A DNA stretch of 64,000 nt from an uncultured Gemmatimonadales bacterium. GTDB lineage: Bacteria > Gemmatimonadota > Gemmatimonadetes > Longimicrobiales > Gaopeijiaceae. Shown piece after piece: positions 43,224 through 48,357 of this stretch (position 1 is the first letter of the stretch; the number at the start of each line of letters is the position of its first letter). The DNA is taken from NCBI GenBank assembly GCA_963809895.1, contig CAWELD010000003.1, forward strand, positions 384,001-448,000. Direction: 5' to 3'. The notes under the pieces are model-generated. The model was given only the letters and a program-made list of their open reading frames with translations, made no database searches and was not told the DNA's origin. The translations under genes and the position numbers were made by a program.

Positions 43224-43431
43224 GACCGGCGCCTTTCTGGGTGCGGGGAGGGCAGGACCGCCCCGAATCATATCTCGCGGGGGCTGCGGTCGCTTGATTC
43301 GGAAGAATTCTTGACGAAGGGAGCGCGGACCCCGGTCGGCAGAAATCCGCGGAGCCGAACGTCGGAGAGTGAGCGGTCGCGCCTCGGGGCGTCTGTGCGT
43401 ACCGGGGCATCATCCAATCCCACACCCGACC

Positions 43432-44718
43432 ATGCGCCTCCACCGTCTCGCGCTTGCTATGCGTCCGCCCCTGGCCCGATCCGTGGGCTGGCTCATGGCT
43501 CTCGCACTCCTGGCGCCCCTGGCCTGTTCCGACGCTCCGTCCGCCCCGGAGATCCCGCCGGGCGAGCTGGTCTTCACCGTCCAGCCGACGGACGCGCCCG
43601 CCGGTACCTCATTCGAGAGGTCTCCGGCCGTGCAACTCCAGGACCCGAACGGAGCGCCTCTTCTGCTGGAGGGCGACGTGACGCTGCGATTGGAGGGAGG
43701 ACCGGAGGGGGCGAGCCTCGGCGGAAAGACCGTCGCCACGGGCCGGCCGGTGACGGCGACCTTCACGGGGGCCTCGGTGAGCACGCCCGGCAACTACTGG
43801 CTCGAGGCGGAGTGGAAGGGCAAGACGGCCCGGAGCCGCGACTTCGAGGTGGTGACGGCGCCGGACCTGATCCGCATCCACAACGGCGGCACCGAGGCGC
43901 GGGGGATCGTCATCGACGGCGCCACGTCGCAGGAGTTCATCAACGACGACACGCTCCTGACCACCGATACGATCATCGAGCTGGTCCGGCGCTCGCCCGG
44001 ACTCAACGGCGAGGTGGTGGTCTTCGACCGCCAGCGTGCGGTGACCGCCGCGCCGACACCGTGGACGCCCGGCGTGGACACCTTCGACATCACGCTTCGG
44101 GATCCCCCGACGATTCCCATCACGATCTGGATGCTGAGCTCCCGACCGCAGCGGGTGCAGACCGCGGTGGATGCCTGGCTCGAGATGTGGGGTACGGAGG
44201 GCATGGGACTGGAGGTCGACCTGGAAATGGTGGACCTGTCCGACATTCCCGGGGCACCGCAGGTGGATGGCCTCGGGTTCTGCCGGACCGGCTCGGACAC
44301 GCGCAAGGAGTGGGGATACCGGCCCGACCGCATCAACGTGTACTACGTGGAGTTCGAGGGCACCGGGGGGGTGGCCTGTGGCGAGCATCTGGGTGTCGTC
44401 ATGATCATCAACCGGCTCGCGGACGTGGGGAACCTGCTCACCCACGAGATCGGTCACTCCTTCGGACTCCCGCACTGGTTCGAGCTCGGCCTCACCGGAT
44501 TCGCCGACACGGGCAATGCCATGGGGGGCGGCGAGCAGTACCTTACCGAAGGGCAGATCTTCTACTCGCACTTCTCGAAGACATCGGCGCTGGTGACCGT
44601 GTACGGCCTCGACGAGGGCGCCCGCGACTGCTCGCCTCCGAGAGACGAAGAGGACGACCGGCCCTGGTGCCTGCCCCACGCCTTCCGGTTCTGGCCGGAC
44701 AGATCGCCAGCGGGATAG
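43432..44718 (+). CDS. Lipoprotein with a metzincin-type zinc protease domain
   Basis: Lipobox PLAC; Ig-like LVFTVQP domain; HEIGHSFGLPH and a downstream NAM Met-turn. Confidence 0.75.
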   Translation: MRLHRLALAMRPPLARSVGWLMALALLAPLACSDAPSAPEIPPGELVFTVQPTDAPAGTSFERSPAVQLQDPNGAPLLLEGDVTLRLEGGPEGASLGGKTVATGRPVTATFTGASVSTPGNYWLEAEWKGKTARSRDFEVVTAPDLIRIHNGGTEARGIVIDGATSQEFINDDTLLTTDTIIELVRRSPGLNGEVVVFDRQRAVTAAPTPWTPGVDTFDITLRDPPTIPITIWMLSSRPQRVQTAVDAWLEMWGTEGMGLEVDLEMVDLSDIPGAPQVDGLGFCRTGSDTRKEWGYRPDRINVYYVEFEGTGGVACGEHLGVVMIINRLADVGNLLTHEIGHSFGLPHWFELGLTGFADTGNAMGGGEQYLTEGQIFYSHFSKTSALVTVYGLDEGARDCSPPRDEEDDRPWCLPHAFRFWPDRSPAG

Positions 44719-44952: not shown

Positions 44953-45672
44953 ATGAGCGCCATCGCTTCACCCACCGCACGCTCCTCCACCCTGAATCCG
45001 GACGCCCTCTCCCGGGTCGGTCTGCGGCCGGTCGGCCGTGTCGCTCTGTCGTGGTGCATGGCCGGTGGGGTGGTTGCCGGTGGACTCCTCGTCGTGAGCA
45101 TCACGCTCGCCGGACGGTTGAGCGCCGGCGGGATCTCGGTGGTCGCGGCCACACTCTTCGTCATGGGCGCCGCCGCGGGCCTGGTGCACGGAGGCTTGCT
45201 GGGCTATCTGGCCCGAGACCCGGGCGTGCCGCGCAAGGACGCCTTCAGGCAACTGGGGCTCGCCGCGCTCTGGCTGATACCGGCCCTGGCGCTCTCCGGC
45301 CTGGCCGCCATGTGGATGTCGTTGACCGCGGCCGCGCTGTCGGGATCGCTTCCCGCAACGGCGACGGCCGGGGTGGCCTTCGGATGGATGCTGGGCCTGG
45401 CCTTGTGCGCATGGGCGGTCGCCGAAGGGTGGATGGCGCTGAGCCGGGCATTCCGGCGTTGGCCCGACTATCGGTGGGGCGCGTTGATCCTCAGCGGCGT
45501 CTTCGGCGTGCTGGTCGCGATCTTCCACACGGTTCGCCCGGAGATCTGGTTCACGGACCTCCGCGTCACCGGGTTCGGCGCCATCTTCCTGGCGCTGGTG
45601 GCCACGGTGTGGATCGGCCTTCCGGTGGCCATCGTCCTGCTCCGCGTCTGGCACCGGTTGGTGGCGGCATGA
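44953..45672 (+). CDS. Hypothetical multi-pass membrane protein
   Basis: GGAGG RBS; about six hydrophobic helices. Confidence 0.7.
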   Translation: MSAIASPTARSSTLNPDALSRVGLRPVGRVALSWCMAGGVVAGGLLVVSITLAGRLSAGGISVVAATLFVMGAAAGLVHGGLLGYLARDPGVPRKDAFRQLGLAALWLIPALALSGLAAMWMSLTAAALSGSLPATATAGVAFGWMLGLALCAWAVAEGWMALSRAFRRWPDYRWGALILSGVFGVLVAIFHTVRPEIWFTDLRVTGFGAIFLALVATVWIGLPVAIVLLRVWHRLVAA

Positions 45673-45806
45673 GCCTTCCACCCGCACCGAGCCACTGATA
45701 CCTTTACAGGCTGACATTCCAGTCCCGCTCCGCCCGGCGCTCGGCACCGCAAGCCGACCGCGTTCAGAGGCGGGGCCCGTACACCCCGAACGGACCGAGG
45801 GAAACC

Positions 45807-46427
45807 ATGCGGCTCTACGAGGTCGTCTACATCTTCGACGCGTCCATGGACGAGGACGCCGTCAACGCCAAGCTGGACCGGTATCACGGTCTCATCACCG
45901 AAGCCGGCGGTGAGATCACTGCCGTCGACCACTGGGGCGCCCGCCAGCTTGCCTACCCCATCGGCAAGGCCAAGTCCGGGTACTATGTGGTGGCCCAGTT
46001 CGACGCGCCGGCCGACGCCCTGCCCGAATTCGAGCGCATCGTCAAGCTCGACGACGAGGTGCTGCGCTATCTGGTGGTCCTGAACGAAGGCGAGCCTTCC
46101 AACGGCATGTCCATCATGGCCGAGGCGGCCCCTTCGGCGTCCACGGACGACGACGAGGACGACGAAGAAGAGGACGAGGACGACGACGACAGCCCGCCGG
46201 AGTTCCAGGGCGGCCGCGGCCGACGGCGGCGTCACGAGGGGCCCGCCATCACCCTGCTGAACTACAAGGACGTCTCGACGCTGTCACGCTTCCTGACGGA
46301 GCAGGGAAAGATCCTGCCCAAGCGCACCACCAAGGTGGACGCCCGCTTCCAGAGGCAACTCGGGCGCGCGGTGAAGCGGGCCCGCTACCTGGCCCTGATC
46401 CCGTACATGCGGGACCACGAGGCCTGA
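45807..46427 (+). CDS. rpsF-rpsR: Fused 30S ribosomal proteins S6 and S18
   Basis: aa 1-93 match S6 (YEVVYI, WGARQLAYPI, GYYVV, VLRYLVV); acidic linker; S18 follows (NYKDVSTLSRFLTEQGKILPKRTT, QRQLGRAVKRARYLALIPY) with no stop between. Confidence 0.92.
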   Translation: MRLYEVVYIFDASMDEDAVNAKLDRYHGLITEAGGEITAVDHWGARQLAYPIGKAKSGYYVVAQFDAPADALPEFERIVKLDDEVLRYLVVLNEGEPSNGMSIMAEAAPSASTDDDEDDEEEDEDDDDSPPEFQGGRGRRRRHEGPAITLLNYKDVSTLSRFLTEQGKILPKRTTKVDARFQRQLGRAVKRARYLALIPYMRDHEA

Positions 46428-46431
46428 TTCG

Positions 46432-47391
46432 GTGCAGGAAGCCAGCCGTCCGGGCGACGAGCCGTTGCCGGAGGGGGATCCCCGGGAGTGGCGCCGTCCT
46501 GCGGCGCTGTTCCTGCTCCTGCTGGCGTTTTCCGCCGTGCGGCCGTCGGTCCTCGTGGGCCTGCCGTTCGCCCTGATGGTCCTGGCCCTGCCGATCCGAC
46601 GTCCCATGGCGTTGCTGCTGGCCGGAGCCATGGTGTTCTTCTCGCTGCTGGGGCCGGAGCGGACGGGCATCTGGTACGCCGAGCGAGGGTGGGCGGTACT
46701 CCTGGGCGGGTGGTTCGCCGCCCTGACCCTGCGCTGGCCCGCCACCCGGTTCCTCACGCGAGCGCTCATGGCGGTGGCCGGTGCGGCCGGCGTGGCGCTG
46801 GCGTTCGGGTTCGCGGCCCCGGGCTCGCTCTCGGTGCTGGACTGGGGGATGGCGGAGCGTCTCCGCGAAGGCGTCACCACGGCCCTGGCCGCCGTTCGCG
46901 TGCTCCAGGGCGGGGCGGAGACACTCTCGCCCGCGCTGGTGACCACGGTCTACCAGGCGGCCGAGACGCAGGCGCACCTGTTCCCGGCGCTGCTGGCGCT
47001 GGGTTCGGTGGCCAGTCTGGGGGTGGCGTGGTGGCTCTACGTGCGGGTGGGTCTGGGCGTGCGCGGCGCGCTCGCTCCGTTGAAGGACTTCCGTTTCAAC
47101 GACCAGCTCGTCTGGTTGTTCATCGCCGGCCTCTTGGTTCTGGTGATCTCGCCGGGCGAGGGATGGATGCGGGCCGGGGCGAACGCGGTCGTCTTCATGG
47201 GCGCCATGTACGCGCTGCGCGGCGCCGCGGTGGTGTTGTTCATCAATGGGGGTATCTCGGTCCTGGGCGTCATCGCCGTCGCCTTGGGCCTGCTGTTCGT
47301 GGCTCCGATCATCCTGGCGGGAGCGCTGGTGATCGGACTGGGTGACACATGGTTGGACCTCCGGGCGAGAGCCGGATCCCGGACGGCGTGA
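46432..47391 (+). CDS. DUF2232/YybS-family membrane protein
   Basis: Multi-TM; FRFNDQLVW, IGLGDTWLDLR; usual position between rpsR and rplI. Confidence 0.85.
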   Translation: MQEASRPGDEPLPEGDPREWRRPAALFLLLLAFSAVRPSVLVGLPFALMVLALPIRRPMALLLAGAMVFFSLLGPERTGIWYAERGWAVLLGGWFAALTLRWPATRFLTRALMAVAGAAGVALAFGFAAPGSLSVLDWGMAERLREGVTTALAAVRVLQGGAETLSPALVTTVYQAAETQAHLFPALLALGSVASLGVAWWLYVRVGLGVRGALAPLKDFRFNDQLVWLFIAGLLVLVISPGEGWMRAGANAVVFMGAMYALRGAAVVLFINGGISVLGVIAVALGLLFVAPIILAGALVIGLGDTWLDLRARAGSRTA

Positions 47392-47414
47392 TCAATGGAC
47401 GAAGGAGACATCCG

Positions 47415-47879
47415 ATGAAAGTGATCCTGAAGGAAGACATGCCGAACCTGGGCGAGTCCGGCACCATCGTCGACGTGAAGCCCGGATACGCTCGCAACTA
47501 CCTGCTTCCCCGGGGCTTCGCCTACGAGGCGAGCGAGACGAACCTGCGCCGCATCGAAGAGGAGCGGCAGCGGGCCGAGGAACAGGCGAAGCGCGACTAC
47601 CTGGAGGCCCGGCGGCGCGCGTCCCAGCTCGAGGGCCAGTCGCTGGTCTTCGAGGCGCGGGCCGGTGAAGGCGAAGACGGAAAGCTGTTCGGCTCCGTCA
47701 CCAACGCCGATATCGCCGACCGCCTGAACCGCGACGGAGGGCTCGACTTCGAGTTGGACCGTCGTCTCGTTCAGCTCGAGGAGCCCATCAAGGCGCTGGG
47801 CGCATACGTCGTTCCCATTCGCCTCCACGCCGACGCGGTGGTGGAGGTGGACATTCGAGTGGAGCGCGCCGAAGACTGA
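47415..47879 (+). CDS. rplI: 50S ribosomal protein L9
   Basis: MKVIL...LG..G..VDVKPGYARNYLLPRG, KLFGSVT, PIKALG; AAGGAG RBS. Confidence 0.97.
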   Translation: MKVILKEDMPNLGESGTIVDVKPGYARNYLLPRGFAYEASETNLRRIEEERQRAEEQAKRDYLEARRRASQLEGQSLVFEARAGEGEDGKLFGSVTNADIADRLNRDGGLDFELDRRLVQLEEPIKALGAYVVPIRLHADAVVEVDIRVERAED

Positions 47880-47952: not shown

Positions 47953-48357
47953 ATGGAGTCGATCAGGACCGTGACCCCGGCGGAGCTGCCGGAAGAAGTC
48001 CAGCGGGCAGGAGCGCTCGCCCTGGAGCGAAAGGCGCAGGACGTGTTGGCCCTCGATCTGCGGGGGATCAGCAGCGCCACCGACGTGTTCCTGCTCGCCA
48101 GCGGAACGTCGGACATCCAGGTCCGGGCGGTGGCCGAGCACATCGTCGAGGAATTGAAGAAGGACGGCGTCCGACCCGACCACGTCGAAGGGATGGAGGG
48201 AGGACGTTGGGTCCTCATCGACTACATCGACTTCGTGGTCCACGTCTTCCATCCACAGGCCCGGGGCTTCTACCAGCTCGAGACGCTCTGGGGTGACGCA
48301 CCGCAGGTGGGCTTCGAAGACGAGATGGCCGACTCGGCGGAGAACCCCTCCTCGTGA
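47953..48357 (+). CDS. rsfS: Ribosome silencing factor
   Basis: KAQDV..LDLR, WVLIDYIDFVVHVF..R.FY.LE.LWGDA. Confidence 0.95.
   Translation: MESIRTVTPAELPEEVQRAGALALERKAQDVLALDLRGISSATDVFLLASGTSDIQVRAVAEHIVEELKKDGVRPDHVEGMEGGRWVLIDYIDFVVHVFHPQARGFYQLETLWGDAPQVGFEDEMADSAENPSS

Follow-up and report, generated by a model that had tools for sequence, protein, structure and literature searches.

A fused rpsF-rpsR gene encodes ribosomal proteins S6 and S18 in one open frame throughout a Longimicrobiales-like family of Gemmatimonadota

The ribosomal proteins S6 and S18 are the standard example of a pair that has to form before rRNA can be bound. As set out in one part of a published report (PMC4647458), S6 and S18 form a heterodimer first, which then binds to the S15-16S rRNA complex, and in E. 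coli the S6:S18 heterodimer represses translation of rpsF via the 5' leader. In the canonical bS6:bS18 heterodimer (PDB 1G1X, 4YBB, 7K00) the two proteins are separate chains. By contrast, the DNA analysed here, a window of 64,000 nucleotides which the names of its homologues place in the Gemmatimonadota, in a Longimicrobiales-like family including the cultured Gaopeijia maritima, encodes both proteins in a single open frame, such that the predicted product is one chain in which the C terminus of S6 and the N terminus of S18 are not free. The fused protein nonetheless shares with the canonical pair both domains, each above its profile cut-off, and the position before rplI, and it keeps both the acidic tail of S6 and the basic arm of S18. 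The split rpsF/rpsR genes of the same order and phylum, the domains of which are 53-68% identical to the window protein, are like the fused gene in having an acidic S6 tail and an adjacent S18, with no ssb or priB between them; they differ in that a stop codon and then an ATG separate the two coding regions, and in that their S18 is of the putatively zinc-binding (C+) subtype in 31 of 32 loci.

The original prediction, made from sequence alone, described one 206-codon ORF with complete S6 and S18 and no stop between them, standing in the usual place of rpsF and rpsR before DUF2232-rplI, with no ssb intervening. The ORF list, Pfam and NCBIfam all agree with this description, as do the Pfam assignments of the neighbouring genes (Table 1); neither ssb nor priB was found between the S6 and S18 parts, and the D/E run, the RGRRRR patch and the in-frame ATGs lie in the sequence where they had been reported. 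In Pfam, Ribosomal_S6 matches residues 4-91 (E 1.3e-29, 102.7 bits against a cut-off of 27) and Ribosomal_S18 matches residues 151-198 (E 1.8e-19, 70 bits against a cut-off of 21). The NCBIfam equivalogs give the same picture, TIGR00166 (S6) covering residues 1-92 with 90.7 bits (cut-off 42.9) and TIGR00165 (S18) residues 148-202 with 74.5 bits (cut-off 38.75). A search of the whole assembly (5,328,191 bases in 11 contigs, 95.16% complete) found exactly one match each for S6 and S18, located in the same open frame; the fused gene is therefore the cell's sole source of both proteins.

Table 1. Features of the fused rpsF-rpsR locus and its 3' neighbours, in positions of the window
Feature	Position	Strand	Basis or remark
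5' leader, conserved predicted stem-loop structure	45690..45806	+	nine aligned loci from one genus
Shine-Dalgarno-like GAGGGA	45797..45802	+	4 nt 5' of the ATG; kept in 9/9 aligned loci
Fused rpsF-rpsR ORF	45807..46427	+	ATG start, 206 codons plus stop, without internal stop
bS6 domain, residues 4-91	45816..46079	+	Pfam PF01250; pLDDT 95-97; Foldseek
S6-type C-terminal tail, residues 92-128	46080..46190	+	E. coli S6 alignment; split relatives similarly acidic
In-frame ATGs, codons 101 and 104	46107, 46116	+	within the S6-type tail
15-residue D/E run DDDEDDEEEDEDDDD, residues 114-128	46146-46190	+	end of the S6-type tail
Junction motif SPPEF, residues 129-133	46191..46205	+	occupies the stop/start codon position of split relatives
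S18 N-terminal basic arm, residues 134-151	46206..46259	+	solved S18 chains align; without CxxC
RGRRRR, residues 137-142	46215-46232	+	inside the S18 N-terminal arm
bS18 core, residues 152-206	46260..46424	+	PF01084, TIGR00165; pLDDT 87-94
DUF2232 membrane protein gene	46432..47391	+	PF09991, 30.8 bits, cut-off 27.8
rplI (bL9), N and C domains	47349..47879 (listed ORF)	+	Pfam
rsfS (ribosomal silencing factor)	47953..48357	+	PF02410, E 2.6e-30

The surrounding genes call for brief comment. The ORF listed for rplI overlaps the 3' end of the DUF2232 gene, and because its L9 N domain begins only at residue 23, translation more probably starts from the ATG at 47415 (MKVILKEDM...). Directly 5' of the fused gene lies a hydrophobic ORF of 239 aa (44953-45672) with the look of a multi-pass membrane protein and no Pfam match; a further ORF, of 449 aa (43369-44718), has a hydrophobic N terminus and a HEIGH motif, and may encode a secreted zinc metalloprotease, Peptidase_M66 matching it below threshold (18.9 bits, cut-off 20.6).

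The two domains had initially been described as joined by a linker of ~45 aa. On comparison with solved and split forms no new linker is apparent; the segment is made up of the native acidic tail of S6, about five junction residues (SPPEF) and the native arm of S18. E. coli S6 (135 aa, its acidic tail included) aligns to residues 1-128 of the fused protein; alignments to solved S18 chains begin at residue 134 or 142 and end at residue 204. In split relatives S6 ends in a comparable acidic tail (...EEED), followed by the stop codon. Within the order, the S18 ATG follows the S6 stop by 2-6 nt at each of 12 split loci, a gap that reaches about 140 nt at most in a distant family; in 7 of these 12 loci the two coding regions are in the same frame, divided only by the stop, or by the stop and one codon. 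The Shine-Dalgarno site of S18 in split relatives, GAGGAGGA, is itself encoded by the final Glu/Asp codons of S6. The arrangement in split relatives suggests that the rpsF-rpsR fusion arose when the stop codon of S6 was lost at such a tightly coupled junction; that a single loss of this kind would suffice to fuse the genes offers a simple reason for recurrence of fusion in unrelated bacteria.

The junction (S/G)PPEF-x-G-x-RGRRRR is kept in 20/20 fused loci, one having A-P-E-F; written more generally, P-P-E/P/V-F/Y is present in 19 of the 20 and A-P-E-F in the remaining one, and the split forms are without the motif. The acidic segment that precedes it is freely variable, ranging from about 40 to about 180 residues among the fused loci. 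Acidic tails of comparable extent are also seen on split proteins: three loci of another family of the class (L035-L037, in G222, G241 and G257) have S6 proteins of 224-234 aa with Ala/Glu/Asp-rich acidic tails of ~130 residues, and in each the S6 stop is retained and a separate C+ S18 lies downstream. Long acidic tails that end in a stop codon imply that such a tail is characteristic of the phylum and did not come about through the fusion.

A structure prediction, which had been suggested as a check on the fusion, gives two confident domains with a disordered tail and arm between them. The AlphaFold2 model, for which 52 fused sequences were used, has a mean pLDDT of 81.8 and a pTM of 0.73, and disorder is predicted for residues 106-124 (pLDDT below 50) and 132-142. 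The S6 part has the strand-helix-strand-strand-helix-strand order of the S6 fold, and in Foldseek it superimposes on the solved chain 8cwo_F with a target TM-score of 0.93 and an rmsd of 1.0 over 94 columns. No solved chain with both domains was present in the best 60 of 130 sequence matches or among the top 50 listed fold matches.

Fused genes were found throughout the window's family. The protein of Gaopeijia maritima (P0012) is, like the window protein, of 206 aa, and is 76% identical to it; among the matches listed, both Pfam domains are present in all of at least 120 homologues. In a sample drawn at genus and family level, comprising 41 relatives of which 25 are of the window's family (its own genome included), a match consistent with fusion is present in 24 of the 25 family genomes: 21 are single, full-length and stop-free, two consist of two segments in one open frame, and one is broken across two contigs. 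The one family genome without a match is 87% complete. All 16 sister-family genomes in the same sample, from two families, have two adjacent genes. In a sample of the order (151 genomes), all 50 genomes of the window's family are matched, as are 47/50 and 49/50 of the sister families, where each listed row has an internal stop or a separate second match; in 17 sister-family genomes, one match runs over the full length and is interrupted by precisely one stop. In a sample of the phylum (121 genomes, each at least 90% complete), matches that are stop-free and full-length, or of two segments in one frame, are restricted to the 12 genomes of the window's family, its own included.

Reading of the loci themselves (51 fetched and read by script) leads to the same division. 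Single ORFs of 205-345 aa are present in 20/20 family loci, the window included; the genes are split in 12/12 loci of the two sister families and in 20/20 loci of nine further families of the phylum, the 32 split loci (L023-L054) thus coming from 11 other families. The close relatives are therefore not all split, as they might have been had the fusion originally proposed been confined to one genome, since the search of related genomes for single ORFs with both domains found fusion at every family locus read. The tallies include six unpublished genomes, all of other families and none of them fetched, on which no conclusion rests: G117 has an in-frame match with one stop, G053 has a match over the S6 part with one stop inside, and G025, G103, G166 and G221 have listed matches only over the S6 part.

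A maximum-likelihood tree of 52 rows, built on the S6 domain and S18 core, unites the fused rows in a single branch (support 100/98) that adjoins the sister families. This topology fits one origin and vertical descent of the fusion in the family, an event that would have occurred once, at the base of this one Longimicrobiales-like family. Horizontal replacement of S18 in the fused clade was considered as well and may have occurred; in the combined S6 and S18 tree that clade lies among its taxonomic neighbours. The family is the sampling unit, and the fact that all its members are fused counts as one event, rather than as many independent functional confirmations.

The reading preferred here, with a probability of roughly 0.8, is that the ORF is a real rpsF-rpsR fusion, one chain of which would do intramolecularly what the S6:S18 heterodimer does. 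Translation from the ATG at 45807 would give one chain of ~23 kDa, running in the order S6 domain, disordered acidic S6 tail, SPPEF junction, basic S18 arm and S18 core, which would provide the 30S platform with bS6 as well as bS18. Pairing of S6 with S18 would then take place within one molecule, so guaranteeing a 1:1 stoichiometry.

It is conceivable, if improbable, that the fused ORF instead encodes a precursor, the linker of which is cut after translation or during assembly to release separate S6 and S18. A conserved motif adjoining a disordered segment resembles a possible processing site, and retention of PPEF-x-G-x-RGRRRR at every fused locus, beside an acidic region that varies freely, could be read in this way; however, the RGRRRR portion corresponds, in alignment, to the N-terminal arm that S18 natively has in solved chains and in split relatives (MARGRQK...), and conservation of the motif as an RNA-binding arm, in contact with rRNA or S6, is explained without cleavage. 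The neighbours at the locus are DUF2232, L9 and RsfS, with no protease tied to it, and cleavage of a fused precursor would have no obvious advantage over the tightly coupled two-gene layout.

Rather than being cut from a precursor, S18 might also, or mainly, be made alone from an internal start, the fusion protein being minor or dispensable. Such a start had been entertained in the original prediction for the in-frame ATGs of codons 101 and 104, and three relatives (L015, L020, L021) have an in-frame ATG or GTG nearer the arm. The proposal is unsupported by comparison of the loci: no Shine-Dalgarno-like site lies within 18 nt of either ATG, the two codons are not conserved (GLS or GMS being found there in relatives), and the fused genes have, ahead of the arm, nothing conserved that corresponds to the strong GAGGAGGA site of S18 in split relatives. 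Among the 20 fused loci, no start codon conserved in position and accompanied by a Shine-Dalgarno site was found between the domains, and 5 of the 20 are without any in-frame ATG, GTG or TTG between the S6 domain and the S18 core, so that a conserved internal start finds no support, and production of S18 by this route appears very improbable.

The single frame was further compared with contigs aligned to 45600-46600, drawn from four public runs of as many studies, some of which leave parts of this interval uncovered. A 337-base contig of a related strain (run X3 record 18) covers 45918-46254 with 11 substitutions and no gap, and three contigs of another run (run X2 records 10, 11 and 15) jointly cover 46090-46267, likewise gapless. 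A metatranscriptome contig (run X5 record 27) is identical to 46123-46245; this is compatible with transcription across the junction, but contaminating DNA could also be its source. Over 46080-46260, the interval for which mapping of reads had been proposed, the public-run contigs thus cross the junction and no indel is listed. The depth spike at 46145-46190 is due to unrelated contigs that share the low-complexity GAC/GAG run. The notion that the single frame merely reflects an error of sequencing or assembly, a stop or indel having been overlooked in this low-complexity acidic run, at which foreign contigs pile up and the gene of one relative (G018) is broken across two contigs, is effectively refuted by the gapless contigs over 46090-46267 from four runs of four studies, by the single frame in 20/20 independently assembled family genomes despite their differing linker lengths, and by the genome having no second S6 or S18. 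The genuine in-frame S6-S18 fusion that was first proposed is consequently upheld by the sequence, by independent contigs and by conservation in every family member examined; limited to the level of the gene, what was noticed in one genome is one family-wide fused gene, found at all 20 family loci, and not an accident of that genome.

The region 5' of the fused gene also has conserved features. In an alignment of 45677-45818 with eight relatives, all of one genus, three blocks are invariant (ATCCCGCT, GCCCGT and GAGGGA), and nested stems with 20 predicted pairs can be drawn, 3 of which have compensatory changes among the nine loci. A search of 45300-46600 against Rfam (4227 families, E up to 10) gave five chance-level matches to microRNAs and lncRNAs (E 5-10) and no ribosomal leader. 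The predicted structure may be autoregulatory, as a lineage-specific counterpart of the rpsF leader that binds S6:S18.

Fusions of S6 with S18 are not unique to the window's family, and the present case is not a first. A search of 1.84 billion representative proteins found many two-domain S6 and S18 proteins at 28-47% identity to the window protein, their S6 and S18 sequences being typical of proteobacteria, alphaproteobacteria, Bacteroidota and other groups; in the ESM Atlas, only Gemmatimonadota fusion clusters of the window protein were found. Such levels of identity, together with the lineage-typical character of the S6 and S18 sequences, point to independent origins of the fusions in other lineages. 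Most of these proteins are metagenomic singletons, such that some may be artefacts, and some recur in several sources. One of them, P0178, comes from a Bdellovibrionota MAG (record OY764265.1) and is 205 aa long; a contig scan with it returned its own record only. Of 15 genomes searched from its class, 7 have a single full-length stop-free match, 5 have two segments in one frame, 1 is split and 2 have no match; hence 12 of the 13 matching genomes look fused, and 10 loci were read as one ORF. The fusions of other lineages (P0178, and the proteobacterial-, alphaproteobacterial- and Bacteroidota-like P0160, P0171 and P0180) have the same S6-spacer-S18 order as the window protein, and their S18 part is likewise without the full Cys motif; by contrast with the strongly acidic spacer of the window protein, theirs are basic or mixed.

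The first analysis knew of no characterised example of a fusion of this type. This stands in so far as no paper describing one was found, but diverse S6-S18 fusions do exist in other lineages. In the main texts covered, no described or characterised natural S6-S18 fusion was found; the main text of Yutin et al. 2012 contains none of the terms 'fusion', 'fused' and 'S18', and that of the paper describing Gaopeijia mentions neither ribosomal proteins nor a fusion.

The sequences of the fused and split S18 differ in a further respect. According to a part of one report (PMC5912738), CxxC-type motifs separate zinc-binding primary ribosomal proteins from zinc-free alternative ones, S18 being among them, and the mycobacterial S18-1 is reported there to bind zinc. 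Among the 32 split loci of the phylum, the same 31 in which S18 is C+ have CxxC in the arm and C-A/S-R/K/P-H-Q in the core; given this motif and the portion of that report, split-form S18 would be expected to bind zinc. At 20/20 fused loci the S18 part is entirely devoid of Cys, and Phe stands in place of the core His. In the window protein the core has D-A-R-F-Q in place of C-A-R-H-Q, both the third Cys and the His being gone, and its Cys-free S18 part is accordingly not of the zinc-binding subtype. In lacking any CxxC-type Cys, it resembles the mycobacterial S18-2 (C-) as set against S18-1 in the same part of PMC5912738; however, C- alternative ribosomal proteins are Zur-regulated spare copies, whereas the fused C- S18 is the only S18 of its genome. 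The exception among the 32 split loci, L048 (in G260:C1, belonging to a different family of the class), encodes an S18 from which two of three Cys are gone (CPITE..., V-D-A-R-H-Q), which indicates that motif loss is possible without fusion.

General zinc sparing was considered as a cause of the Cys loss and rejected for the window's genus, since S14, L31 and L33 are of four-Cys type both in the window's own genome (G000) and in G015; the loss of Cys is thus specific to S18. Elsewhere in the fused family, in a genome of another genus (G024), the sole S14 and L31 matches are Cys-poor (C-; L056 and L065, at G024:C1:3382258-3383313, ~0.7 kb apart), by contrast with the four-Cys forms of the window's genus, so that the zinc status of ribosomal proteins varies within the family.

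The same contrast is seen in the Bdellovibrionota class, where one split genome has CxxC...C-x2-H, and ten further fused loci, as well as that of P0178, are without the motif. Across diverse lineages, the full motif occurs in 0/33 fused proteins scored by script and, as judged by eye, is absent from 6 unparsed ones. Fusion and loss of all four putative zinc-motif residues (CxxC...C-x2-H) co-occur, and the two may be causally linked. The form that such a link might take is a matter for greater caution. Zinc would, in an S18 of the zinc type, hold the N-terminal CxxC to the Cys and His of the core; it may be, though this is doubtful, that tethering to S6 and the S18 zinc knuckle are alternatives, the tethered arm making the zinc site dispensable or incompatible, and hence lost. 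The opposite order, in which loss of the zinc site came first and permitted the fusion, is also possible. The pattern is new, but with two informative contrasts only it is a lead, not a result.

UniRef carries the fused protein under the automatic label 'Multifunctional fusion protein', and the source annotations name it solely as '30S ribosomal protein S6' (NCBI) or 'small subunit ribosomal protein S6'; as a consequence of annotation as S6 only, marker-based completeness and phylogenomic pipelines may record S18 as missing in the window's family. Judged on the sequence evidence, the S6-S18 fusion is real, lineage-wide and modestly surprising. As a natural single-chain S6-S18 that is fixed family-wide, including in a cultured species, and that has sister families with split genes and C+ S18 for comparison, it would provide a ready test of obligatory 1:1 tethering in assembly of the 30S platform and in autoregulation. 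The link between fusion and motif loss is likewise testable and, if true, the S6-S18 fusion would give S18 a way of folding its arm that needs no zinc.
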